DNA of 64,000 nucleotides from Candidatus Zixiibacteriota bacterium. GTDB taxonomy: Bacteria > RBG-13-66-14 > B26-G2 > WVWN01. Below, in pieces: positions 3,391 to 52,342 of this stretch. The translations under genes and the position numbers were made by a program. Within the stretch, counting starts at the first letter, position 1; each line of letters opens with the position of its first letter. The notes beneath the pieces are model-generated. The model had not been told where the DNA came from. It worked only from the letters and a program-made list of their open reading frames with translations, and did not search any database. The stretch spans positions 124,949-188,948 of the forward strand of contig JASFLY010000003.1 in assembly GCA_050117845.1 (NCBI GenBank), read 5' to 3'.

Positions 3391-3872
3391 ACTCGTCAGT
3401 CGGGCCGTACAATGTAGCCCGGCCCTTTCGGGGAAAGCCCCCTGGCCGCCCCTTGTTCCGCAAACATTAACGTAAATACGACCGCCTGGCAAGTTTTTTA
3501 TCGCTACCCGGCCCGGGGTTAAACGGCGATGATAAATTTGCACCGGCCTTGGTATATATGATATATTTTTATGGGTTTACTATCGTCTTTTTCGCGGGAT
3601 TCAATGTTGGCAAGGGTACTTTCTCACGTTGAGGTAACCGGTCATATAAAACGCAAATAAACGGGGAAGCATAACTGACGCGTTTTAACGGAATATATAA
3701 CGTTCGGACCCGGCCGCTTCGCCCGACTCTAGCCCCCCTCTGCGTCAACATCCCCTCCTTACCTGACGTTATATTTCTCCCGTAAAAAAGTTATGGGGCG
3801 GCGACGCCGTTAACCAGCGGCCGACCTTCACGATTTACCGGCGCCGCGCCGGGCGACGAAGAGGAAAACACT

Positions 3873-6236: not shown

Positions 6237-6277
6237 TCCCCGCCCGTAATTCCCTCTTCCAATGACGCCGTTCACGA

Positions 6278-6302
6278 AGCGCCCTCCGGGGCGCTTTTCT
6301 TT
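6278..6302 (+). terminator. intrinsic terminator
   Basis: AGCGCCC-TCCG-GGGCGCT hairpin followed by TTTTCTTT, 40 nt after the stop. Confidence 0.6.
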
Positions 6303-6630
6303 ACGATAAACGGCAAAATAGCATTAAATGAGTAATTTACTTAACATATATGATAAATTTTGAGTGAATTCGACAGGTTTTGACGAAAGCAGGACGATTT
6401 TACTCCGCTATATATATAATGGAATCAGTATTGGAACGTCGTTTATTACTGGGCCGCCCTAAAAGTCAACTATAGTCGGCCCAACTGTACCCCCCCCAAA
6501 GTAGTCCGCTCTTTAACCGTTCCCTAATGATTTCGAAGCCCCGGCGCAATGCCAGCCGGGTATCCCTTACGCCGTCGTGCCTACCGGCCGTCGGACAACC
6601 GATTAGTAATAACGCACAGGAGGATCGAGT

Positions 6631-7563: not shown

Positions 7564-7700
7564 ACACCGCCTCCCGGGCGGAAGGCCGATTCGTGGACGA
7601 TGGGTTAGAAACTCGTCCGCCGACAAGGCCGAGGCGCAGTTACGGCGAAACCCGTAATCCGGGCGTCCTACGCCTCGGGAAGAAAGGAGTGCGGCGCCTA

Positions 7701-7835
7701 ATGGCGAATGAGAAATCCGATTGTAAATGGGCCCAGGGCGACCCCGACCCGACGGGCCTCTTCTGGTGCGATAAAATGGCGTGCATGGTCAACGGTAAAG
7801 AGAAACCGACCTGCACCCATTACGAGAAGGACTAA
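7701..7835 (+). CDS. small Cys-rich peptide, tandem copy 1 (44 aa)
   Basis: AAAGGAG RBS; MANEKSDCKWAQGDPDPTGLFWCDKMACMVNGKEKPTCTHYEKD; shares DCKW...WCDK...C.HY motif with the two following small ORFs. Confidence 0.45.
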   Translation: MANEKSDCKWAQGDPDPTGLFWCDKMACMVNGKEKPTCTHYEKD

Positions 7836-7910
7836 CGTCTAATTAAGGTTCCTAAGGCAATTAACCAATCCCAATCAACCGCGAAGCCCCCAGATTACGA
7901 GGAGTGAAGC

Positions 7911-8045
7911 ATGGCAAATTCGAAATCAGATTGCAAGTGGGCGCAGGGCGACCCGGATCCTACCGGCCTATTCTGGTGCGATAAACTGGGCCGTATGGTC
8001 AACGGCGAAGAAAAGCCGGTCTGCGAACACTACAGTTCCGAATAA
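7911..8045 (+). CDS. small Cys-rich peptide, tandem copy 2 (44 aa)
   Basis: GAGGAG RBS; MANSKSDCKWAQGDPDPTGLFWCDKLGRMVNGEEKPVCEHYSSE; below the ORF-track size cutoff, read directly from the sequence. Confidence 0.45.
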   Translation: MANSKSDCKWAQGDPDPTGLFWCDKLGRMVNGEEKPVCEHYSSE

Positions 8046-8101
8046 CGCAATCTAACACCCCTCTCGTCAGGGCAAGCTTCAAGGGCAAAGGACGTGGGAC
8101 G

Positions 8102-8227
8102 ATGAGTAAGGGAGACTGTAAGTACGCTGGCGAACCTAATGAATTGGGTCATACATGGTGCGACAAAATGGAGCGCTATGTACCCCCAAAGGACGAAGAA
8201 AACTGTGAGTTGTATGAACCCAAGTAA
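8102..8227 (+). CDS. small Cys-rich peptide, tandem copy 3 (41 aa)
   Basis: MSKGDCKYAGEPNELGHTWCDKMERYVPPKDEENCELYEPK; same CK(W/Y)A...WCDK...C.(H/L)Y motif, more diverged. Confidence 0.4.
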   Translation: MSKGDCKYAGEPNELGHTWCDKMERYVPPKDEENCELYEPK

Positions 8228-8804
8228 GTAAAGGCACCTCCTTTACTTAACGGCCGGCGGCGTAATAATACCTCCGTCAGGTATTATGGTACGCGTCGCC
8301 GGTTTATCTATTCCACGGCGTGAACGCCGGCCAACCGCACGGGAATAGTTGTTTCACCTATTGGGTTGTAATATACTAGAGCGCCGTTGAATTTATTTAT
8401 AGCCTCACGGCATACTACCCTATTATATTTACCCATACACCACGAGAAAAGAACTAACAACGAGCTAGTATTACATTTACTTGACTCGTACCGCATTTAG
8501 CTGTTATAATTTAATTCCCGCCCCCGAAAACCGGGACGTTATCCGTGGTAGATGATGACGAAATATGACTTATTTTGAACACGGCAACGGTCACAGGGCC
8601 TGTTATATATAATGAGAGGGGATTATTGACACTGTACGGATAACGTCGCGGTTAACGGGACATTCCCGTTTAGAATGCGAACGACTCTTACATGAAATCC
8701 ATTCCGAATCTTTAACGGTAACGTCGGTGAACCCGGCGGGGAATCATAATAACCGTTTCGGGTGAGCCGAACCAAACGAACTCTTAAGTAAAGGAGGTTG
8801 GATT

Positions 8805-20900: not shown

Positions 20901-22958
20901 CGCCTCCAGGAGTTCGACCGCGCGTTCGAAATCGTTCGTCCGGGCGGCGGCCCGGCCCGCCTCGAGGAGAGGGCCCCGGGCCTTGCGGCTCGACCCCATG
21001 CGGAGGTAGGCCCGGCCCTTCGCCTCCAGCGAATCGACGTCGCGGACGCCGTTTCGGTCCAGGAAGGCCACGACGCCGGCCGAGGCTTCCTCCAGATACT
21101 CCTCCCGAGCCCACTCCAGAACGTACTCCCTCACGGCGGCGTTCGCGAAGGAATACCCGGCGTCAGGCGTCTCCTCCTTGCTAATGACGCCCGCCTCCAC
21201 CAACCGGCCCAAGACGCCCCCGTCCTTAACCAACTCGCCCGGGAAATAATAGCCGTACGCCGCGGCCAGCGCCAGCGATTCCTTCTCGTTCTCCCCCAGG
21301 CGCTCGATAACGCCGACCAGATAGTCGTCCGGCGCCGGGCAGACGGTCGCGGTTTTCAGGCTGCCGTAATCGACGTGCCACCCGTCCAATCGGCGTATAA
21401 CCGTCTTCTCCGCGATAAGATGTTCTATAGTGCGGCGGAGGACGCCGGGGTTCCCTCGCGCCAGCCGCTTGACGTGGCGGGATAAAGCCGGGTCCACCTT
21501 GGGCACGCCGAGGGCGTATTCCAGATAACGCTCCGTCGTTTCTTCCGAGAAACCCTTTAATTCGAACTTCTTTACCGTTAACAACCCTTGCGGGCCGGCC
21601 AGGATTTTTTTCGTAAAGGCGCCGCCGGGCCGAGCGAGCGCGATTACGAACTTCACCCGGCCCCGGAACGGATAGTTCACGAGGCGCGTTACCGATTTCG
21701 CCGTTCCTCCGTCCTCCGCGTCGACGTTGTCGAGAGCCAGGACGGTCACGTCGTACTTCCCCGACGAGTCGTTCAGACTGCGGAGGACGTCGGCCTCGCC
21801 GGCGACGTCGTACGCCGGGGCCCCCATCAGGGCGGCCTCCAGCGAGCGCGAAATGCCGGTACCGTCGTAAGCCTCCGGGAAAGCGGCGCGGACGCGGACA
21901 CCGAGAACGCGACGCAACGCCCGTAATACGCCCTCGCCGGCGCCGCAGTCGACGTATAAAAAGGAACCCCGCTTTAACTGAGCGACCCGGCCTACTTCGC
22001 GCAAAAACGCCGTCTTCCCGACGCCCGCCGAACCCTCCACGATGAAGACCTCCGGCCCCTGATTATCGCCGGAAGGACGGAAAACGTCCGTCACCTCTTT
22101 CTCGTAACCGAAGAAACGGCCGGTCGCGAGGTCCGTTTCTATGCGCATCGTTTCGGGAAGAGGGATATCCTGAGCCCGGGCGAGTTCGGCCAGTTTCGTT
22201 ATGGCTTCGTACGCGGACGCGAACCGGTCCGCCGGATTGTGCTGGACCAACCGCGACGCGAAAACGTCCAATTCCGGGTAAACGTCCGGGGCGACCTCGC
22301 GCAAGCGTACGTAGTCGTACCTCGGCTTACGTTTGACCCGGGATATATCGTCGCCGGGCATGAACGGCAAGCGGCTTGTGATAACCCGGAAGAACAGGAT
22401 GCCGAACGAGTAAAGGTCGGACCGGGGATCGTCCATGACCCCCTGGAAGACCTCCGGCGCTATGTACTCCATGGTACCGGAGACGGGATAGCGGTCCTCA
22501 CCCTCGACCTGGCGGACAAGGCCGAAATCCCCCAGGATGAAGCGGCGCCGATCTTCAGCTTTGGCCTCGAAAACGTTACCCGGTTTCACGTCGCCGTGGA
22601 TTATGCCGCGCCGGTGGACGTAGTCGAGGGCGGACAATAGCTGCAGGGAGAAGTCGAAGAGGTATGGGAGGTTAATGTCCGGGCCGGCCTGGTCGAAGCG
22701 CCACCCGGCGTAATAATCCATCGTATAATAAATGAAATCCTGTTCTTCGCCGAAATCGTAAACGCGTACGATATTGGGATGGTCGAGGTACGTGAGGGTT
22801 TCGAACTCCCGTCTGAGAAGCTCGATGGGCCTTGCCCGGGATTTATCGACGGTTTTAATGGCGACGACCTTTTCCCGGCTACGGTCGAAGGCTTTTACCA
22901 CTTCCGACGTAGGAGTGCGGGCAATTTGTTCTATTATGTCGAACCTGTCGTCGAGCAT
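17979..22958 (-). CDS. multidomain regulator: Ser/Thr protein kinase-like + STAND/NACHT-type P-loop ATPase + TPR + GAF + sigma-54 interaction AAA+ domain + Fis-type HTH
   Basis: Kinase motifs VAIK, HGDVKPGN, DFG, APE (Gly-rich loop absent); Walker A VEGSAGVGKT; long TPR-like helical region; GAF (RGVIFLLD...GVVYLDS); EBP domain VLVVGESGTGKE, ESELFG, GAFTGA-variant GTATGV, C-terminal HTH. Confidence 0.85.
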   Translation of the reverse strand: MLDDRFDIIEQIARTPTSEVVKAFDRSREKVVAIKTVDKSRARPIELLRREFETLTYLDHPNIVRVYDFGEEQDFIYYTMDYYAGWRFDQAGPDINLPYLFDFSLQLLSALDYVHRRGIIHGDVKPGNVFEAKAEDRRRFILGDFGLVRQVEGEDRYPVSGTMEYIAPEVFQGVMDDPRSDLYSFGILFFRVITSRLPFMPGDDISRVKRKPRYDYVRLREVAPDVYPELDVFASRLVQHNPADRFASAYEAITKLAELARAQDIPLPETMRIETDLATGRFFGYEKEVTDVFRPSGDNQGPEVFIVEGSAGVGKTAFLREVGRVAQLKRGSFLYVDCGAGEGVLRALRRVLGVRVRAAFPEAYDGTGISRSLEAALMGAPAYDVAGEADVLRSLNDSSGKYDVTVLALDNVDAEDGGTAKSVTRLVNYPFRGRVKFVIALARPGGAFTKKILAGPQGLLTVKKFELKGFSEETTERYLEYALGVPKVDPALSRHVKRLARGNPGVLRRTIEHLIAEKTVIRRLDGWHVDYGSLKTATVCPAPDDYLVGVIERLGENEKESLALAAAYGYYFPGELVKDGGVLGRLVEAGVISKEETPDAGYSFANAAVREYVLEWAREEYLEEASAGVVAFLDRNGVRDVDSLEAKGRAYLRMGSSRKARGPLLEAGRAAARTNDFERAVELLEAALTTEGNWYSEAYEDAVTDLAEAYSAMGDHASALGYYDALVRCRKPGQVGYGKALLQLSRERLVLGDFEAPARDLDGLPPDELEAGDRFLRQALLAWTYFRNRDFDRAITLARDAEALAAAVDRPDLVAYVNYVKGAISYYAGDADAALAAFAETARLAEEAGKPRLASIALNLTGEVLLWRADVERAEDATRRSIELAKRAHDRYALVASLIRLARIYHNQGYVKRAAREFEAAEAECKLIDNPELLASIYVGSAANMIRAGEYRRAEFYLDELDAEESLAGAIPGYASYYRALIAAENGELDEALEHLKRSEESFTERGARTEVDDTRSLRGRVLFLAGRYEEAEEELARCLKNLEDSGDKLEHAKVLLTRGELSGARGDADLGEAYLDQALSTFTALSSKYFLGRCYMARAELKLKALRGAGDVDIIRQARNDLEKAKTLFGEIGVNKYRVKIFELEGNLFMAERNSDEGEKKLAELADGLKELSDQPDLDDLLKFILSYLAERLEADRGVIFLLDEHNNVLRIKGTAGVDDSTIEDASVISKTIIGHVAESKKAVFSPNAAEDFRFKDSASVQLHGIRSLICIPLAGGDGAFQGVVYLDSLQRESLFAEEDLNFAQVFARAAAYEIERRRRRSEESFATISIAPREEAAKPLLVGSSQVMEELRGAVASAAQANVDVLVVGESGTGKELVVRTVHTLSPNADAPFIGVNCAAIPEALLESELFGIEKGTATGVDKRIGLFERAGDGTIFLDEVAAMDMNTQSKLLRVLQEKRFVRLGSRTHQTIPLKARVVSATNADLPEAIASGKFREDLFYRLNVFLIGCPPLREHREDIPELLNHFVTTYYQGKAKDRPRFSPEAVAIMTAYEWPGNVRELENCVRYALTATSSRVIEPDALPVNLRKMGRPGRSTSSSSLNESLANLEREMILEALEEARWVKAAAARKLEISETNLRYKMKKYGISPEEKFPIE

Positions 22959-23836
22959 GGATTCCCGGTATCACAGGGTTAAGTTAACTTCGCCTGGCGT
23001 TCGGGTTATCTTACGATATTATTTTCCACTTTAATAATATATAATTTTACATAGCGCCGTCAAGGTTTTTACGCTCGTAAGCTTGGCAATAGAACGCTTT
23101 TATCTTCCGGCACTTACGACACGCGGCAGCGCCGCGGGCTCCCGATCCCGGCCTAACTCGCCGGGGCCTTCGTGAGCCGCAACCGAGGCGTTCCCATCGA
23201 AAGCTCCTCTTAGTTCAAACCGTATCATCAATACTCCTACCCTAATATATACGCGAATTCGGACCATCCGTTGCCGGAGCGCCGGAACGGATATTACGTA
23301 ATCCCCCGTTGCCTATTATAATCATTCCCGGCGTAGGCCGTAAGTGCTTAATTATCAATAGCATAGCTAGTATCGACGACAAGGGCTCCCGGGGCTAAAA
23401 TGGCCGCCGCCGCGCCAAGGTGTCACTGGACTTAATAAAAAGGCCGAGAAGCGCCGCCGATCCGGAATCTACCCGCCGCAACGCTGAACCGCTCTAACCG
23501 GATTCGCGGCAATCGCCTTTTCCCAACAGACTGTAACCTTACTTTATTGAAAATCGTCAAGTCATCGAACGCGGCGGCCTTCGTCGGAAATATAATGAAA
23601 ACTGGTATAAGAACTGAGTATTTTTATAACGGCCCTATGTCATAAATTGACATACTAGTAATATAATTATTGTACGAGAATTGGACGAGCCATAACTCTT
23701 TATGCTATAATAAATAATGGACAATTAAGTCGGCGAGGTATGACAAGATAAAACTTAGGTTAATCCTTTTTTGTAATGATGGGTTATACCCATAGGGAGG
23801 CTTGGTCTAACCGACTAAGTTAAAAGGACGGTATCT

Positions 23837-24829
23837 ATGTCCGTAAAGCGTGCGGAACGGCTCTTTCATATGATAAGTATATTAAGGACGGGACGGGGAT
23901 ATACCGGGGCCGAGTTGGCCGACGTCATGGGCGTTTCCCAACGGACGGTTTACCGAGACGTCGTCGACCTGTCGGGACTGGTGCCCATATATTACGACGA
24001 CGGGTACCGGCTCCTGTCCGATACTTTCCTGGCCAACCTCACTTTCACGCGCGAAGAATTGGTGGCCCTCAAGCTGGGCGTACAGATGCAGGCGCTGGCC
24101 GAAGCCTCTCACCTCGGCGCCGCGACCCAATCCGTCCTCGCGAAAATCGACGAACAGCTGGAACGCCGGTTCCAGGGCGAGGCGGACGACGGCGACGTAA
24201 TATCGGTCCACGTGAAGGCTCACCCGATGGGAGAGAAGACGGTGCGGGTCCTACGAGACCTGGAGGACGCGGTACGGCGCCGCCTGACCGTCGAATTCTC
24301 CTATTACACGCTCAGCCGAAACGAGAAGACCAAACGGACGGTCGACCCGTACGGCCTGACGTTCCGACGCCATAGCTGGTACCTGGTGGGCTATTGCCAC
24401 CTTCGCCACCAGGCGCGCGTATTCCGTCTCGATCGGATCTCCTCCGTTGCGGCCACGTCACACAAATTCGAACGGCCCAAGGACTTTTCGCTGGAAGAGT
24501 TCTTCGCCGATACCTGGGAGGTATTCGCCTCCGGCCCTCTGGCCGACGTCGCGTTGCGCTTTTCCCGGCACGCGGAATTCATCGCCCGGCCCACGCTGGG
24601 AGGCCGCGGCGAGTTCAACCTTGAACGAAAAAGCAATAAAATAGTATTTCGCGGAGAAGTCCCTGTAACGGACGAATTCGTACGTTGGCTTCTGACGCTT
24701 GGAGAGAACGTCGAGGTCCTCGAGCCGGCCGAACTCCGCGACAGGGTAGCTTCCCGCCATCGCTCCGCAGCCGAACTCTACGAGCCTATCGTCGCGGAGG
24801 CGGGTTCGCGAGGGATAAACACCGGGTAG
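23837..24829 (+). CDS. WYL-domain transcriptional regulator (HTH + WYL)
   Basis: AAAAGGACGG RBS; N-terminal HTH (YTGAELADVMGVSQRTVYRDV); WYL signature HSWYLVGYCHLRHQARVFRLDRI. Confidence 0.8.
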   Translation: MSVKRAERLFHMISILRTGRGYTGAELADVMGVSQRTVYRDVVDLSGLVPIYYDDGYRLLSDTFLANLTFTREELVALKLGVQMQALAEASHLGAATQSVLAKIDEQLERRFQGEADDGDVISVHVKAHPMGEKTVRVLRDLEDAVRRRLTVEFSYYTLSRNEKTKRTVDPYGLTFRRHSWYLVGYCHLRHQARVFRLDRISSVAATSHKFERPKDFSLEEFFADTWEVFASGPLADVALRFSRHAEFIARPTLGGRGEFNLERKSNKIVFRGEVPVTDEFVRWLLTLGENVEVLEPAELRDRVASRHRSAAELYEPIVAEAGSRGINTG

Positions 24830-24945
24830 GAGGCCGCTTCCCCGTCCCCGGGACGGGGCTGTTTAAGCAGGCGCGCCGCACTTTTCGGGGGATTATCGTC
24901 CGAATGCTCGAGCGACACGGGTACGTCGTAAAAAATAAGGCGGGC

Positions 24946-24966
24946 AACGAGCGCGCCTCGTTTTAC
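24946..24966 (+). terminator. weak terminator-like hairpin downstream of WYL gene
   Basis: AACGAG-CGCGC-CTCGTT followed by TTTTA; short stem. Confidence 0.3.
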
Positions 24967-25185
24967 GTTATCGATATTGTCCGTTTCCCTTCCGTTTTCC
25001 AAACCCTTACTAACGTCAAAGGCTTGTCCGAAGCCGTTACCAGGGCCGCCCCGTCGGCGTTCCACCGTACGACCGGGCGGACCGTATTGTAGCGCCGTTC
25101 CCCGAAAGCGGAACGGGCCGGCGAATAGGGCGGACGTAAGTCGCGCCCGACAATTTAAGATAGAAATTTGACAAGCGTAATGGGG

Positions 25186-25212
25186 GCCCGGGGATTACGG
25201 TCCGGGCTTTTT
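25186..25212 (+). promoter_or_regulatory. terminator/attenuator-like hairpin in the 5' leader of the RT-sensor gene
   Basis: GCCCGG-N10-CCGGGC + TTTTT ending 3 nt before the GAGGAGG RBS (25216-25222) and ATG 25231; a third CCCGGG at 25224-25229 allows alternative pairing over the RBS; TTGACA hexamer at 25168-25173. Confidence 0.4.
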
Positions 25213-25230
25213 CCCGAGGAGGTCCCGGGA

Positions 25231-28200
25231 ATGGACTTTTGTTCGGCGGACGACCTGGCGGCGGCGTGGCCCTACGCCCGTCGGGATGCCGCGGACAATT
25301 TCGTCTTCGACGTTATCGATTATGAAGACGTCAAACATAACCTGCCGCATATAATCCGGCGGCTCGAGCGCGAACTCCGGACGGACCAGTATAAACCGGC
25401 CCCCCTTCTGTCCGTCGATATACCGAAAAGGCCCTACACCATCCGCCCGGGCGCAGTCGTCTCTTTAATCGATTTAATCGTACTTTACGCCCTGGTCAGG
25501 AAAATAGCGCCGGCCCTCGACGCGAAATTATCGCCCGGCGTATTCTCCTACCGTTGGGTCCCCGAGGGAAAAAAGCCCAAGTGGTCCATCTTCTCGGAAT
25601 CGACCCAGGACGAATGCGGCATCGACGAAATCCTCCCCGCCGCGCCGTTCGCTCCGTACCCTCCTTTCGACGAGGCCGCGCCGGCGGGATGGTTCCGGGG
25701 GTGGATAGAATATCACGAGCGCGCGAAAGATTCCGCCGCCCGCTATAATTATTGCGCCGTCGGCGACGTTACAGCCTATTTCGAAAACGTCGCCGTGACG
25801 TCGCTCTTCAACCGTATAGGGGACCTCCTCGGCCCGGAGCACTCGGAAGCCCTCACCCGCCTCCGCCGCTTCTACGAGTATTGGGCCTGGCATCCAGCCG
25901 GTACGACCACGCGCGGCGAAGTCCTCCCCCAGGGCAACGATATATCGCTCTTCCTCTCGAATTTCTATCTGACGAAACTCGACGAGGCCATGGCGGCCGA
26001 AGTCCAGAACGACCCCCGCCGGTACTTTCGCTACGTCGACGACATCTGCGTCTTCACCGATACCCAGGAGCAGGCCCACCACTCCCTCCTCACCGGCGAC
26101 CGGGTGCTGCGCGATCTGGGGCTGAACCTTAATACGGAGAAGACCGGGATCGTTCCCACATCCCGCCTCTTCGACCGGGACGTGGAGCGCTGGCTCGAGG
26201 ACATGTCGCCCGTTACGGCCAACGCCGCCGAGAACGCCCGTGACTTCTTTAAGAACCGCTTCGACGCCGACGACGTCGAGAAGTGGGAACGCGCTTACCT
26301 GCGGGCCTTAACGACTCTCCAAAGAGCCGGCGACTGTTCGGTCGCCCCCGCCGCCCTTCAGGTTTTCCTGGAGAACCCCACGTACAAACTGCTGGTTAAA
26401 AATTTCGATTACCTTAGCTTCTTCGCGGAGCGTTTCCGATTCGGCGACGACGTCGCCCGCCGGATCACCGAGGGAACGTTCAACTTTCCATTCCACAAAC
26501 ACTACCTTTACCGCCTGGCTGCTTACTGCCGGCAGAACTCCCCTTCTCTCCGCGAGCAAGCTCTGGAAGAAGCCCGCGGCGACGCCGAATGGTACGTCCG
26601 AATCGCCGCGTTATACTGCCTGAACACGTTCAACCTTTCGCCCGACGAACTCGACGCCGTCGAGGAACTGGCGGGCAGCGAGGCCCACCCGCAAGTGGCC
26701 CGCGCCGCGCTCGTCGTTTTGCGACAACGGCCGGCCGACGAGGTCGCCTCGGCCGAGGATCATTTCCTCTTTACCACCGCGCCCGGCCAGGAGAACCTAC
26801 GCGAATATTTCTTCCGCCTCACGACCGAAGAGGAATTGGCGCGTGCCGTCCTCGAGCGGATCCGGAACCAGGAGGTGGCCTCGCGCGCTTTCCTGAACCG
26901 CCTCCACCAACTGGACCTCCTCAAGGGCAATCCCGCCGTCCGCGAGGAATACGGCCGGATCCTCGAACAAAAGATAGACGAATGCGACCCGGCCTGGACC
27001 CGCCTCTATAGCCGCCTCCGGCGCATCGCCGAACTGGCGTCGGTAAGTGCGTTGCGCGTTCGAAAAGCGCGCAAAATCGCCCGGGCGCAAGGCCACCTTC
27101 AAACCCTGCTGCGAAGCTCGCGCGAGGCCGTCCTTATAACCGGCCCGGGAGGAGACGTCCAGGTCTGGAACGACGCCGTGAACAAACTCCTCGGTTACGG
27201 CCGCCGCGAGGTCCGCGGGAAAGACGTGACCGACATCTTGCCTTCCCCCGGCGGCTTCGCGTCCGCGGACGAACTCACGGCATACGTCGCCGAGAACGGC
27301 GGATGGCTCGTCGAGGAGGCAACCCTTTACGAGCGGCCGGACGGCGCGCTGATTGACATTTCCACCACCTATTCCGTTATCACGGATCCCATTACGGGCG
27401 AGCCGGTCGGCCTCCTTATCCTTGTACGCGACGCGACCGCCGAAGTACGGGCCGCCCGCATCGAACAGGTACAAATCGCCACCGAACAAACCCTGGCCGA
27501 CGCCACGGTCCGGCTTGTCTCGCCGGAAGACCTGGACGCCGCCATTGAGCACACCCTGCGAGAGACGGCGGACGTGCTGAACGCGCAACGGGCCACCGTT
27601 TTCCGTTTCAGGGAAGGAACACTCGTCCTCGATGTAACCCACGAATGGTGCGCGCCCGGCGTCCCTTCGACCCGCGACTCCGGAGGAAAACTGGACCTCG
27701 GCGAACTCCCGGACGTCCGCGAGCGCTTGCATTCCGAGCGCGTCCTTTCGATATCGAACCTCTCCACTCCCAGCGCCGGGAGTCAACGGGTGATGAAGGA
27801 ACGGGGTGTCAAAGCGGCCCTCGTCGTCCCGTTCTATATTTCCGACGAGATGACCGGCCTAATAGCGTGCACCGATACGACCCGGCCTCGCGACTGGGCG
27901 TACGGCGAGGCCAATCTCCTCTTCGCCGTAACGGCGCTTATCTCGAAAGCTCTGGCGCGCCGGGAAGCGGAGGAGGAAAAGCTGGTGAGCGAGGTCCGCT
28001 ACCGGGCCGTCGTCGAAGACCAAACGGAGCTGATATGCAGATGGCGGCCCGACGGGACCCTTACCTTCGTTAACGAGGCTTACGGCCGGTATTTCGGGAA
28101 ATCGCCCGGCGAACTGGTGGGCCGGAGTTTCATCCATTTTATCTCGGAGGAGGATCGCGAAACCGTCGAGGCCGAATTCGCGTCTCTGGGTCCGGACAAA

Positions 28201-34719: not shown

Positions 34720-35985
34720 TCACGCGACCGGTGCGGCCGTACGAATACGTTCCTCTGTTGCGTCCGCGGTCAGGCCCTCGGCCGGGTCCGCCGTCGGCAG
34801 CAATCCGCCTTTCGTCGAAGCCAATACGTCGTAGTAGAGTTCCCGGATATCGCGGCCCAGGCGCTCGAGCGTAAAACGCCTCTCGTACGTCTCCCGGCCG
34901 AGCGCCCCCATCGACGCGGCCAGCGACGCGTCGTCAAGCGTGTGAGCCAGCGCCGCCGCCACTTCGCCGGCCGACCCGACGTCGGTTAAAAAGCCCTCGC
35001 GGCCGTCTTCCATGATTTCCGCGACGCCGCCCGCCCGCGCGGCCACGACCGGGACGCCGCGGGCCATAGCCTCCACTACGACGCGGCCGAAGGGCTCGGC
35101 CTTCACCGGCGTATGGACCAGGACGTCGAACGCCTCCATGGCCCGGGCCGCGCCGTCCAGTTGCCCCGGGAAACGGACCCGCGCTCCCAAACCCGCGCGA
35201 CGGACCCGGTCCAGGAGTTCCGCCCGGTACGAGTGGGCGCCGTAGAGCGGGCTCCCGATAACGACGAAATAAACGTCCGGGAAATCGGCCGCGAGGCGAG
35301 CCGCGGCGTCCAGGAAAACGTGTTGGCCCTTCCACGGCGCGAGTTGCCCCACGCAGCCCACGATTCGGGCGTCCGCCGGTATGGCCCACTCCTCCCGCCA
35401 CCGATCCCCGTCCCGGCGAGGATACGCCGGCGGACGGGCCACGGCGTTATACACGACGGCCACGCGCCGTCGCGCGCGACGGAACTGCCCGGCTACGGTC
35501 CGGGATATCGCGACGACGCGCTCGGCGCTTATAGCCGCCAAGAGGTCCATGATCCCCCGGGCGAAGCGACCCGGGAGAACGTCCCGCATGTGCCACACCA
35601 GCGGGACGTCCGAGGCCACCGCGGCGAGGGCCGCGAAGACGTGAGCTTTCTGGCTGTGAGTATGGATCAGGTGCGGCGAGGCCGCGTCTATAACGCGACG
35701 GAGACTACGGGCCGTCCCGAACGCCCGGAATACCTGGCGCCACCAGCTTACGGAAAGCGGAGAGATATCCTCGCGGTGAAAGGTTAACAGGGACGCGTCC
35801 GCCCGGTAATAGTAGATACGTTCGCCCCGCTCGGCCAGAGCCCGGGCCAACGGCCCCGGCCCCGGCACCGCGAACGATATTTCATAACGCTTGCGGTCGA
35901 AAGTCCCGGCCAACTCCATCATGCTCCGTTCGCCGCCGCCTACCGTAGTGGCGTGGTCGACGAATAACAACCGCGTCCTAACCAT
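34720..35985 (-). CDS. glycosyltransferase family 4 (GT-B)
   Basis: EPFGRVVVEAMARGVPVVAARAGG matches the GT4 E-x-FG...EAMA-x-G-x-PVV motif. Confidence 0.8.
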   Translation of the reverse strand: MVRTRLLFVDHATTVGGGERSMMELAGTFDRKRYEISFAVPGPGPLARALAERGERIYYYRADASLLTFHREDISPLSVSWWRQVFRAFGTARSLRRVIDAASPHLIHTHSQKAHVFAALAAVASDVPLVWHMRDVLPGRFARGIMDLLAAISAERVVAISRTVAGQFRRARRRVAVVYNAVARPPAYPRRDGDRWREEWAIPADARIVGCVGQLAPWKGQHVFLDAAARLAADFPDVYFVVIGSPLYGAHSYRAELLDRVRRAGLGARVRFPGQLDGAARAMEAFDVLVHTPVKAEPFGRVVVEAMARGVPVVAARAGGVAEIMEDGREGFLTDVGSAGEVAAALAHTLDDASLAASMGALGRETYERRFTLERLGRDIRELYYDVLASTKGGLLPTADPAEGLTADATEERIRTAAPVA

Positions 35986-35991
35986 ATCGGC

Positions 35992-37128
35992 TCACCTCGT
36001 ATCGCTGATGCGACCTACGACCGCCGCTTCGAAACTAGCCACTTGCGACGGCACGGTGAATTCCCGTAATACGCGCTCACGGCCGGCGTCGCCCAGACGC
36101 CGCGCCTCGCCCGGATACGTCAACAACGCCACTACCGCGGCGGCCACTTCCGCCGGACATTCCGGATCGACCAAAAGGCCCGTGTGGCCGTCGTCCACGG
36201 CGTCCAACGCGCCGCCGCACCGTCCCGCCACGACCGGCTTGGCGAAGAGCGACGCCTCCAAAAAAACCAATCCGAAACCCTCGTTCTTCTCGACTCCGTC
36301 CTCGACCACTCGTCGGTTCGGCATAACGAAGACGTCGCACGCCCGGTAGTACGGCGCCACGTCTTCCACTCGCCCCCAGAATACGACGTTGTCGGCCACG
36401 CCCGACTCCTCGGCGAGGTCGCGCAATCGGGCCTCGTCGTCGCCGGCCCCGACGATCCAGTAGTAACAGCGTGGGACACAACGGACTATGAGCGGCATGG
36501 CCCGGATCACGACGTCGTGCCCCTTGTAGCGCTCGTCGCCTCGCAGGCGCGCGACCGAAAGGATTACCCGTTCCCCCGCGTTCTTCAATCCCGGGCTCGA
36601 CCCCCCGTTGCCGGAAGCCTCCACCAACTCGGGCGCCACCCCCGGACGGATAACGTCGACGGCCTCCCGGGGCAGGCCGAACCGCGATACGACCAGACTC
36701 CGGCCGTAACGACTCCCGGTAAGGATCCCGGCGGCGCGCCTGAGCAGGAACGTGAACAGGCGTCGATATCGTTCCGGAGTTATCTCGAGCGCGTGCACGT
36801 AGACGAGATAGGGTTTGCGATATATGGTCCCGAGTAAGTACGCGGCCGGGGCCGCGGCGACGTGTCCGCAAAATAATACGTCGCAATCCGCCGCAAGCGG
36901 CGTCGCCGCCCGGGCCATGTTCGCCATCCGGCCCACCCGTGAGTCGGACGGGGCGTAACGGCGAACGCGGTAAATCAACCCGGCGTCAAACTCGTCGGCC
37001 CCCGCCGACGCCGGCGCCACCACCGTCACGTCGTTTCGGGCCGCGAGGCCTGCCGCGATCCCGGCCAGAAGCGTCTGCACGCCGCCCGGTTCGGGCGGGA
37101 AATCCGGAGTTAGGACGAGATAACGCAC
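35992..37128 (-). CDS. glycosyltransferase family 4
   Basis: EGFGLVFLEASLFAKPVVAGRCGG motif; N-terminal MRYLVLTPDFPPEPGGVQT typical of GT4. Confidence 0.8.
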   Translation of the reverse strand: MRYLVLTPDFPPEPGGVQTLLAGIAAGLAARNDVTVVAPASAGADEFDAGLIYRVRRYAPSDSRVGRMANMARAATPLAADCDVLFCGHVAAAPAAYLLGTIYRKPYLVYVHALEITPERYRRLFTFLLRRAAGILTGSRYGRSLVVSRFGLPREAVDVIRPGVAPELVEASGNGGSSPGLKNAGERVILSVARLRGDERYKGHDVVIRAMPLIVRCVPRCYYWIVGAGDDEARLRDLAEESGVADNVVFWGRVEDVAPYYRACDVFVMPNRRVVEDGVEKNEGFGLVFLEASLFAKPVVAGRCGGALDAVDDGHTGLLVDPECPAEVAAAVVALLTYPGEARRLGDAGRERVLREFTVPSQVASFEAAVVGRISDTR

Positions 37129-49942: not shown

Positions 49943-50737
49943 TTATTTTGGCTTCCGGCATATTAGGAGTTCCGTCGTAGGGCTTTCTTTAAATAGCGAT
50001 ACGCATATATTTTCGAAAGGGTATAGAACCATTCCGAATAAAAAACCGGATAATTCGTTCTTAGAGGCGACGCTAACTAACGCCCTCCAATTCGCCTTAA
50101 GGAAGCGGCTTTTCGTATCGATGGGGTCATTCATTAGGAATAGCAACGGAACCCGTTTTACTAATTCGAAGCCCGCTTCTTCCAAAACGAATTCCGTCGT
50201 TTCCAAAGGCCTCCATACGAAGTGCTCCGTTCGTACGGTACTTCCGTGGATAAAAACGTCGGAAAAAATTAATACGCCGCCCGGTTTTAATAACGAATAC
50301 AGGTTCGTTATCGCTTTAGCGAAACGGACATCGTCGACGATATGGTATAAAACGTCCAAGGCCGAAATCGCATCGTACGTACGGCCTGCTAACTCATTTA
50401 AGCCGCCCCCGATATCTAGACGGTAGAAAGGGTGATCTGGGTATTTCCCCCGTAGTTTTTCGATCGATATATTAGTAATATCTACGCCGGTCATTTTATC
50501 GACGCCGTTTTCTTTCCAGTTATCGAAACAAAAACCGGTCCCGACGCCTACATCTAATACCTCCTTATCCTGTAAATCCGGACCGATAGCTTTCATCTCT
50601 CGGGTCAGTACACGTTTCTTTACCCGATACATCCAATTATTGAAACTCTTACCAACCCCCAATCGGCCTACCGATTCGATACCGAAACTCCCCGTTAGTC
50701 TATTCTCCCAGTAATTCTCCGGGATAAACGTAGGCAT
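49943..50737 (-). CDS. class I SAM-dependent methyltransferase (compositionally atypical, lower GC)
   Basis: Motif I VLDVGVGTGF; gene and flanks visibly AT-richer than neighbours. Confidence 0.7.
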   Translation of the reverse strand: MPTFIPENYWENRLTGSFGIESVGRLGVGKSFNNWMYRVKKRVLTREMKAIGPDLQDKEVLDVGVGTGFCFDNWKENGVDKMTGVDITNISIEKLRGKYPDHPFYRLDIGGGLNELAGRTYDAISALDVLYHIVDDVRFAKAITNLYSLLKPGGVLIFSDVFIHGSTVRTEHFVWRPLETTEFVLEEAGFELVKRVPLLFLMNDPIDTKSRFLKANWRALVSVASKNELSGFLFGMVLYPFENICVSLFKESPTTELLICRKPK

Positions 50738-50797
50738 AGCATTACTCTCCTTTATACGCCGTATATTTCAAACTGGTGGGTACTGGGGGAACCGTAA

Positions 50798-52342
50798 TCA
50801 TATTCGGCCTTTCGCTTGGGAAATTATCCTATCGCCCTGGTACCCGTACCGGGCGAGAGTTAGACGAGCCCTCTCTCTCACAAACGAGACGGCAGTTATT
50901 ATTTCGGCACGTCGGTACGCGAAAGCGAAGATAGCGTAAACGAGTGTGGATACGAAAACTGAACCTGCTACGCTTGCCAAGGTACCGTAACGGGAATGTA
51001 GCACCCAACCCGTAAGGGAAGTACAGACGCCCACCGAGACAGAAGTAAAAACCGCCGGCATTACCGATTTTACGTATTGCCTCAGACGCAACCCGATAAT
51101 CCGGTTAGTAAAATACTGGCTTAAGCCGCCGGCTATCAATACGTACGCAGCGAATCCGATACCTACTCCGACTAAACCGTAACGGACACCTATGAACATA
51201 CCGGCTATTATTAATGGTAAGGAGAACATCGAAAGTTTTAACTCCAAACCGGCACGTCCTTTAGCTAAAACGACGGGCCCATTAAGAGTAATAACCGCGA
51301 CGGCGGCACCGGCAATACACATTAACCGGAGCGGCGTAACAATAAACAACCACTGGGAACCGAAGAACACTTCCACTACCGGCCCGGGATTGCCGGCGAC
51401 GAAGGCGAGCGCCGGCCACGTTATAAAGGCCGTCACGGATATAATTTTTATATACGCCCGCCGGAGCCTTTCGTCGTCGTCCTGGATGCGCGAGAAGCCG
51501 GGGAAACAAACCTTCGAGAGTATCCACGACACGCGCTGCTGGGGAGCCGTTATCAGGCGTTTCGTAATGTTGTACCCGCCCAGGAGGCCCGCGCCGAGAG
51601 CCCGGCCCACGATAAAGGTATCTGCCTGGAATCGGACGGCGTGGCACAAGTTGGAGGCGGCGTTCTTCGCGCCGAACGAGAACAGGGGTCGGAGAGACGA
51701 CGCGTCGAAGCGGCCGAAAGGCCGTTCCCGCGAAAGCCAGGTCAACACGACCACCCGGCCGACGGCCCCGCCGAGCTCGCCCCCGACGAGACTCCACGGG
51801 CCGAAGCCGGAGAGTGCCAGAGGGACGGCGACGGCGACGTACGAAAAAGCGTGCACCGCGTCGGCGACGCCGACCTCGCGGAACTTCATCTTTCGGCGCA
51901 GAACGGAATCCGGTACGACCGCCAGGGCGTTGATAACGAAACCGGCCGAGAAGACGCGGAGTAATGCTACCACTCGCGGCTCGCGGAACAGCGCGCCGAG
52001 GAGAGGGGCCGCCAGGACAGTTATCGTCGCGACGGCCGCGGCGAGCGCCAGGAAAACCCACGCGGCGGAACTCCGTTGGAGAGGCGTCAGCTCCCGGGCC
52101 TGTATCAGCGCGTTGGGCAATCCCATTTCGATAAAGATGACGGTTACGCCCGTCACGACGAAACACATCGCGACCAGGCCGAAGTCCCCGGGCGATAGTA
52201 TCCGCACCAGAACCAGAAGGCCGACAAAGCGGACACCCTGGACGAGCACCTGAGACGCCCCTACCCAGAAGGCGCCGCCCAGGATCCGATCCCGGAGTTC
52301 CGTCAATTTAAAAGATGCGGGTTGAGGAGTCTCGTTCGCCAA
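50798..52342 (-). CDS. polysaccharide/O-unit flippase (Wzx-like)
   Basis: 514 aa, ~12-14 TM segments, N-terminal LGGAFWVGASQVLVQGVRFVGLLVLVRIL typical of Wzx family; TTG start uncertain. Confidence 0.7.
   Translation of the reverse strand: MANETPQPASFKLTELRDRILGGAFWVGASQVLVQGVRFVGLLVLVRILSPGDFGLVAMCFVVTGVTVIFIEMGLPNALIQARELTPLQRSSAAWVFLALAAAVATITVLAAPLLGALFREPRVVALLRVFSAGFVINALAVVPDSVLRRKMKFREVGVADAVHAFSYVAVAVPLALSGFGPWSLVGGELGGAVGRVVVLTWLSRERPFGRFDASSLRPLFSFGAKNAASNLCHAVRFQADTFIVGRALGAGLLGGYNITKRLITAPQQRVSWILSKVCFPGFSRIQDDDERLRRAYIKIISVTAFITWPALAFVAGNPGPVVEVFFGSQWLFIVTPLRLMCIAGAAVAVITLNGPVVLAKGRAGLELKLSMFSLPLIIAGMFIGVRYGLVGVGIGFAAYVLIAGGLSQYFTNRIIGLRLRQYVKSVMPAVFTSVSVGVCTSLTGWVLHSRYGTLASVAGSVFVSTLVYAIFAFAYRRAEIITAVSFVRERARLTLARYGYQGDRIISQAKGRI

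Follow-up and report, generated by a model that had tools for sequence, protein, structure and literature searches.

The intergenic spacer described here covers positions 22959-23836 (878 bp) of the analysed 64-kb stretch of DNA, referred to below as the window, and all coordinates are those of the window unless a related locus is named. It separates two divergently oriented regulator genes. The first one starts at 22958 on the minus strand and encodes a large fusion joining a Ser/Thr kinase to a sigma54 activator (the kinase/activator). The second one starts at 23837 on the plus strand and encodes an HTH_11-WYL-WCX regulator (the WYL protein). A preliminary description of the gap had placed its limits at exactly these two starts and a regulator gene on either side, and both statements are borne out by the ORF coordinates and by the Pfam domains found in the two ORFs. 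The WYL gene is followed by a giant gene encoding a reverse transcriptase (RT) fused to an array of GAF and PAS domains. The start of this gene was corrected to the ATG at 25231 on the basis of its SD sequence and of a comparison with the related contig L085. Its RT part matches the PADLOC RT_UG21 profile over almost the whole profile with an E-value of 1.2e-71. UG21 enzymes are Class 1 UG/Abi RTs with an alpha-repeat C-terminal domain, for which no function, regulator or ncRNA is described (PMC9226505). Homologous RT-PAS/GAF fusions of 1748 to more than 2455 aa are encoded in the related loci L002, L081, L084, L094 and L095. The fusion of an RT to a giant sensor array appears to be undescribed, and PMC9226505 makes no mention of PAS. 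The coordinates of all these features are collected in Table 1.

Table 1. Features of the spacer, of its surroundings and of related loci (CM, covariance model).
Feature	Position	Strand	Basis
Window module: terminator, sigma54 promoter and small ORF	17570..17975	-	motif scan, alignment
Ser/Thr kinase (Pkinase)-AAA_16 (STAND-like)-TPR-GAF-Sigma54_activat AAA+-HTH_8 fusion, 1659 aa	17979..22958	-	Pfam
Predicted 5' UTR of the kinase/activator gene, ~70 nt	22959..23028	-	inferred from promoter prediction
Sigma70-like promoter of the kinase/activator gene	23034..23063	-	promoter scan
Core, 54.5% GC over 23064-23590	23064..23636		without ORF, periodicity or similarity
Hairpin/palindrome ATCCGTTGCCGG-AGCG-CCGGAACGGAT, 11 bp	23266-23292		unique in window
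Weak promoter-like site	23373-23401	+	promoter scan
Perfect palindrome ATGTCA-TAAAT-TGACAT, predicted WYL operator	23637..23653		conservation among WYL loci
-10 box TATAAT, 8 nt 3' of the palindrome	23662..23667	+	alignment of loci
Predicted WYL mRNA leader, ~163 nt, 35% GC	23674..23836	+	inferred start; GC content
Second candidate promoter, extended -10: TGGACG-18 nt-TGcTATAAT	23682-23711	+	promoter scan
HTH_11-WYL-WCX regulator (YafY/PafBC/DriD-like)	23837..24829	+	Pfam
UG21-type UG/Abi RT (intact YVDD)-HEAT/alpha-repeat-GAF-PAS (at least 12) fusion, 3141 aa	25231..34656	+	PADLOC, Pfam
Small ORF 3' of the sigma54 promoter	L001 8224-8319; L002 9690-9845; L081 4075-4248; L084 1959-2054; L094 7694-7789; window 17585-17737 (-)		
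Small RNA gene of relatives	L001 6212-6342; L002 4727-4857; L081 1896-2022; L092 5239-5369, 5741-5868		CM
Small RNA gene of relatives	L093 1-100; L094 5453-5583; L095 785-915		CM

The 401-nt region located between the WYL and RT genes (24830-25230, plus strand) is unique to the lineage and 95% identical in L085. It displays no similarity to the WYL-to-RT regions of relatives, and neither a convincing sigma70 promoter for the RT nor a sigma54 promoter was found within it. GC hairpins are present in this region, namely CCCCGTCCC-CGG-GACGGGG and ACGAG-CGCGC-CTCGT, the latter being followed by TTTT. At the other extremity of the RT fusion gene, GT4-family glycosyltransferase genes are convergent to its 3' end (34720-37128, minus strand). 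The same arrangement is seen in L081-083 (L081 12109-13733, minus strand), and 'GT4-conflict' figures among the Pfam matches.

The spacer is non-coding. Its longest ORF spans 55 aa and its translation resembles out-of-frame junk. The period-3 power of the spacer is 0.9, compared to 1.0 for shuffled sequences and to 6.6-14.6 for coding controls of equal length. Searches for a protein remnant using tblastn with all the ORFs of the window and of the closest relatives, as well as tblastx, returned only noise. The earlier qualification of the gap as ORF-free is therefore confirmed, and the possibility of a pseudogene remnant was rejected on the basis of the same tblastn noise and of the absent period-3 signal.

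Base composition required a more nuanced reading than the strongly AT-rich island in a ~65% GC context proposed initially. The mean GC content of the window is 60.9%, so that the earlier figure for the context was too high, and that of the spacer is 46.6%. The profile is patchy: the two ends are indeed AT-rich, with 38% GC (0.381) over 22959-23063 and 33% over 23591-23836, but the 527 nt lying between them (23064-23590) are not, with 54.5%. Other intergenic gaps of the window (3544-3872, 6237-6630, 7627-8804 and 17490-17978) range from 47.6 to 50.5% GC, and the overall composition of the spacer is thus typical of the non-coding DNA found here. The only unusual property of the spacer is its length, which ranks second after that of the gap 7627-8804. 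This longest gap (1178 nt, 49.4% GC) is located between genes of opposite strands and is also devoid of a period-3 signal. The lowest-GC kilobase of the window is found elsewhere (50001-51000, 46.6% GC) and harbors a 264-aa ORF (49943-50737, minus strand) whose GC3 of 0.51 is to be compared to 0.70-0.85 for its neighbors; this ORF may be foreign or recently acquired.

In order to place the spacer in an evolutionary context, 173 WYL loci were fetched. Comparison of the spacer with the window itself, these 173 loci, plasmids and phages using BLASTN and tblastx revealed similarity in the operator core only, which is described below. No record exists of the exact WYL protein, and the contig L085, which is 98% identical, begins 23 nt before the WYL ATG. 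Genome and metagenome scans returned no WYL relatives above 67% identity, and no homolog above 33% identity was found for the N-terminus of the kinase. The closest relatives therefore fail to span the spacer, and its lack of conservation holds only at the level of 65-70% WYL protein identity.

On the left side, a sigma70-like promoter of the kinase/activator gene was predicted within the 38% GC end. It reads TTGACG-16 nt-TATATT, or alternatively 18 nt-TATTAT, and matches 10 of the 12 consensus positions, with the reservation that the consensus of the host itself may differ. Minus-strand transcription would start near 23029. The gene under this predicted promoter occurs in two forms among relatives. 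A long-form homolog, 41% identical over 1531 aa, lies directly after the WYL gene in L092/L093 (L093 1725-6293), and a short GAF-AAA-HTH form of the activator is located between the WYL and RT genes in L002/L095.

The right side contains the most informative element of the spacer. A perfect palindrome, ATGTCA-N5-TGACAT, is located 200 nt before the WYL start and is immediately followed by a -10 box. This is a single site in the 64 kb of the window (both strands being covered by symmetry), compared to 0.08 matches expected. The palindrome is conserved upstream of the WYL gene: none of the 13 related RT-linked loci covering the position lacks it, and over the whole set of 173 WYL loci it is found in 51, including Chloroflexi homologs with only ~30% identity. 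In the Chloroflexi version, the palindrome is extended to GCGGATAT-ATGTCATAATTTGACAT-ATATCCGC and is followed by TATACT 10 nt further on. The palindrome and the -10-like box constitute the single block common to the WYL-upstream regions, as determined by BLASTN and alignment, and the -10-like hexamer is found 8-11 nt after the palindrome in the aligned loci. From the TGACAT-N8-TATAAT arrangement of the window, a transcription start can be predicted near 23674, relative to which the palindrome would span about -37 to -21 and the leader would measure ~163 nt. The fold of this leader is not significant (z -0.55), and a structure shared with the leaders of relatives is unconvincing (covariation term -0.93). 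In RT-linked loci, the ATG lies 107 to 219 nt away from the palindrome. Given this recurrence of the palindrome in front of WYL genes (51 of 173 homologous loci), it is most likely the operator of the WYL protein itself. Taken together, the sigma70-like site read from 23063 to 23034 and the block formed by the palindrome and its -10 box (23637-23667) support the divergent promoters suggested in the preliminary description.

The genetic linkage of the WYL gene follows protein identity. All the WYL homologs with at least 61% identity are RT-linked (L001, L002, L081-083, L084, L092/093, L094, L095 and L085). Those with 60% identity or less have short spacers and an unrelated gene context, PilZ-WYL-DPBB. 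In a Chloroflexia MAG (L047 7317-10942), the palindrome also accompanies a WYL homolog, which is divergent from an operon composed of a 240-aa Cys/His-rich ORF and of a 556-aa UG21-like RT, the latter being 27% identical to the 575-aa RT paralog of the window described below. The link between WYL and UG21 thus reaches beyond the lineage of the window.

Comparison with relatives also shows that the locus has been rearranged. The RT of six related loci lies directly downstream of a conserved module in which a terminator (AAAAACCGCC..GGCGGTT) and a canonical sigma54 promoter (TGGCAC/T-N5-TTGCT) are combined with a small ORF, whose product has a signal peptide and a Pro-rich tail. The module comes after the sigma54 activator gene in L002/L095. 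The window contains a homologous but relocated module, which aligns with that of relatives at 65% column identity and with the -24/-12 elements in register. Its sigma54 promoter, TGGCACGGGAATTGCG (17785-17770, minus strand), matches 10 of the 11 consensus positions, and its small ORF (17737-17585, minus strand) encodes 50 aa, likewise with a signal peptide and Pro-rich. The activator probably acts on this module. It is predicted to drive a 575-aa UG21 RT paralog (15762-17489, minus strand) in which YVDD is replaced by FRDK and which is 34% identical to the UG21 RT of the RT-PAS fusion over the whole RT and alpha-repeat module. The gene located after this paralog (14775-15680, minus strand) encodes 301 aa and produces a PADLOC match to bacterial gasdermin with an E-value of 2.8e-13. 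Because comparison with relatives reveals a rearranged locus, the gene set of the window is read here as consisting of two arms placed back-to-back, with the spacer as the predicted rearrangement junction between them.

Two observations concern the immediate surroundings of this module. The small ORF is kept directly 3' of the sigma54 promoter, before the RT, with a length of 31-57 aa, a K-K-L motif, a hydrophobic helix, an LLP motif and often a Pro-rich tail; its product could be a secreted or membrane peptide. In addition, a DUF4388 protein and a 181-aa protein are encoded beside the gasdermin-like gene (13110-14501, plus strand), and an Anaerolineales MAG (L037 10278-11678) encodes homologs of these two proteins (23% and 54% identity, respectively) next to a WYL gene.

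Another difference with relatives concerns a small RNA. A gene for an RNA of ~130 nt is present at the position equivalent to the spacer in all the related RT-linked loci whose sequence extends far enough upstream. Its location, 200-530 nt 5' of the palindrome, falls between the latter and the upstream gene, and it possesses its own sigma70-type promoter (TTGAC-N17-TATAnT). The 38 nt of its 5' part resemble the acceptor strand, D arm and anticodon arm (UGG) of tRNA-Pro, the T arm being absent. When compared to a real tRNA-Pro(GGG), 28 of 37 positions match, and the score of 17 is to be set against scores of at most 10 for other isotypes. The 3' part consists of an A-rich linker followed by an intrinsic terminator with one compensatory change. 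A covariance model (R1) was built from L001, L002, L081 and L092. It yields 110-145 bits in L001, L002, L081/083, L092 (two copies), L094 and L095, 74 bits in the 5'-truncated L093, and no match in the ~165 other WYL loci (1.77 Mb). This small RNA is absent from Rfam and is not called by ARAGORN, and it is a candidate UG21-associated RNA. It is missing from the window: with filters off, the best match of the model in the spacer is on the wrong strand and reaches 4.8 bits (E about 7), nhmmer returns nothing and Smith-Waterman scores fall within the range of shuffled sequences. As the small RNA accompanies the RT-linked relatives, the window constitutes an exception.

The presence of this gene in relatives nevertheless keeps reasonable the idea, already put forward in the preliminary description, of a non-coding RNA within the gap. 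The core (~23064-23636) could encode a lineage-specific ncRNA replacing the small RNA of relatives and acting as RT template, primer, cofactor or regulatory RNA, a reading we consider unlikely. Several UG/Abi RT systems do need an adjacent ncRNA (PMC9226505). With 54.5% GC, the core exceeds the other intergenic DNA of the window (47-51%) and is close to the small RNAs of relatives (53-60%), so that composition leaves room for an RNA gene. The weak plus-strand promoter-like site and the unique 11-bp hairpin listed in Table 1 would also fit with such a gene, as would a mildly stable fold at 23080-23229 (plus strand, z about -2.3). This fold is however the best of 60 sliding windows of 120 nt taken on both strands, none of which goes beyond chance, and folding its segment in isolation brings the z to -1.79. 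For a candidate minus-strand unit (23432-23592), the fold z is +0.07. No terminator-like site was found in the spacer, and homology searches of the spacer as RNA were negative throughout: neither Rfam, the covariance model, nhmmer and local alignment against the small RNA of relatives, nor BLAST revealed any sequence conservation outside the operator. Rfam gave no match in the whole window at gathering threshold, and the only sub-threshold match in the spacer at permissive settings was osmY (13.1 bits for a threshold of 46.9). The proposed ncRNA thus did not find confirmation in the core. The more elaborate version in which a core RNA serves the UG21 RTs (the RT-PAS fusion and/or the YVDD-less paralog), with an ssDNA product feeding back on the WYL protein through the operator, is given only a slim chance. 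Were it true, the spacer would be part of an undescribed RNA-dependent RT signaling or defence circuit.

The core could also be an extended protein-binding region, carrying additional operators or enhancers through which, DNA looping being one possibility, the two promoters would be coupled or insulated from each other. Possible binders are the HTH_8 domain of the sigma54 activator, nucleoid proteins and the WYL protein. The site at 23266-23292 also reads as an imperfect palindrome, ATCCGTT-N13-AACGGAT, and further inverted repeats are found at 23453-23510. As the former site is unique in the window, a REP, a MITE or a repeated hairpin was rejected for it. Both flanking genes encode DNA-binding regulators, and the spacer is long for two promoters. 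On the other hand, no candidate site recurs in the window or in relatives, and the WYL palindrome itself is single. An enhancer would moreover find no -24/-12 element to serve in the spacer, which contains no sigma54 site with at least 9 of the 11 consensus positions and none corresponding to the degenerate TGGC[ACT][CTG]-N5-TTGC[TA]. The best candidate for the element sought (TGGCAC-N5-TTGC) is weak (CGGACCATCCGTTGCC at 23260), and the only good sigma54 promoter nearby is the one at 17785, 5 kb away. A protein-binding core is therefore regarded as improbable.

A boundary of horizontally acquired DNA, as had also been proposed for the spacer, is very improbable: the GC content of the spacer is below that of coding DNA and its neighborhood resembles defence-island content (UG21 RTs, WYL regulator, gasdermin-like gene), but its composition is that of the other intergenic regions, GC and GC3 are the same in both arms (GC3 of 0.79 and 0.73 for the genes flanking the spacer, compared to 0.70-0.81 for most genes of the window), which argues against a compositional or transfer boundary, the flanking genes co-occur in relatives, no tRNA or tmRNA gene was detected by ARAGORN in the window or in the five closest loci, direct repeats are only short and at chance level, plasmid or phage matches are lacking, and if any island exists its edges are elsewhere than in the spacer.

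The interpretation favored here, with moderate confidence, is that the spacer is a control region common to two divergent arms, with the WYL operator at its right side and junction DNA in its core. The assignment of its two ends to the two promoters is proposed with good confidence. The left AT-rich end (22959-23063) would provide the kinase/activator gene with its sigma70-type promoter and a short leader. The right AT-rich end (23591-23836) would provide the WYL promoter, in which the palindrome would occupy the -35 position, and an AT-rich leader of ~160 nt. A dimer of the WYL regulator most likely binds its own palindrome, so that expression of the WYL gene, and probably also that of the downstream RT-sensor fusion, would be autoregulated in a ligand-responsive manner, be it by repression or by activation. 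The core, for its part, is most likely junction DNA and presumably neutral. A rearrangement would have brought the activator and WYL arms together, back-to-back, leaving this lineage-specific DNA behind, and the same event would have removed the small RNA gene that relatives keep at this place. Three points can be raised against the control region with a junction core: both promoters are matches to a consensus that may not apply to the host, which is possibly Zixibacteria-like, the spacing of 8-11 nt between the palindrome and the -10 box is loose for a fixed -26-type element, and 878 nt is long for two promoters.

Considered alone, the spacer ranks as an ordinary regulatory region between divergent genes, and its value is that of an anchor for the regulation of an uncharacterized gene set. 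The surrounding system, with its UG21 RTs, sigma54 module and gasdermin-like gene, is unusual. The analysis predicts a precise operator, ATGTCA-N5-TGACAT at the -35 position, for a WYL subfamily spanning several phyla. The WYL gene of this system is repeatedly linked to UG21 RTs, to a sigma54 activator and promoter, to a small predicted secreted peptide and, in relatives, to the tRNA-like small RNA.

The locus can be compared to several known systems. Like the ncRNA loci of UG/Abi systems (DRT2, DRT3, DRT9 and UG27), it displays a sizeable non-coding stretch near a UG/Abi RT (PMC9226505), and relatives carry a conserved small RNA gene at the position of the spacer. It differs from these loci in that a conserved or structured RNA was not detected in the window and that the WYL gene intervenes between the spacer and the RT.

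The closest resemblance in terms of promoter organization is with the hybrid promoters of PafBC ('sigma adaptation'), in which the WYL activator recognizes, next to a canonical -10, a -26 element in place of the -35 element (PMC8635444). The WYL protein shares the HTH-WYL-WCX architecture of PafBC, which is its best match among solved structures (6sj9, E-value of 3e-24), the other nearest structures being 7p5x and the DriD-like 8tp8. The site described here is likewise located directly 5' of a -10-like box, at the presumed -35 position, and no properly spaced -35 element accompanies it. PafBC is a heterodimer which applies one HTH to an asymmetric element, whereas the symmetry of the present site (6-N5-6 palindrome) suggests a homodimer. 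Unlike in PafBC promoters, the spacing to the -10 box is variable here, and the host is not an actinobacterium.

DriD/BrxR/CapW-type WYL regulators control stress-response and phage-defence operons. As with these proteins, a homodimeric-type WYL regulator is encoded here beside its presumed target genes, and an inverted repeat precedes the regulator gene itself (PMC9122601, PMC9186387). The operator sequence and the regulated genes, here a UG21 RT-GAF/PAS fusion, are different. The 200-nt gap between operator and start is also unusual, given that Chloroflexi homologs with the same palindrome have their ATG ~30 nt after the -10 box. DriD and PafBC are switched by ssDNA (PMC9186387, PMC11804915). 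By analogy, ssDNA would be the obvious candidate ligand for a WYL protein encoded next to an RT, and if the WYL protein senses ssDNA as PafBC and DriD do, the operator would tie RT output to transcription.
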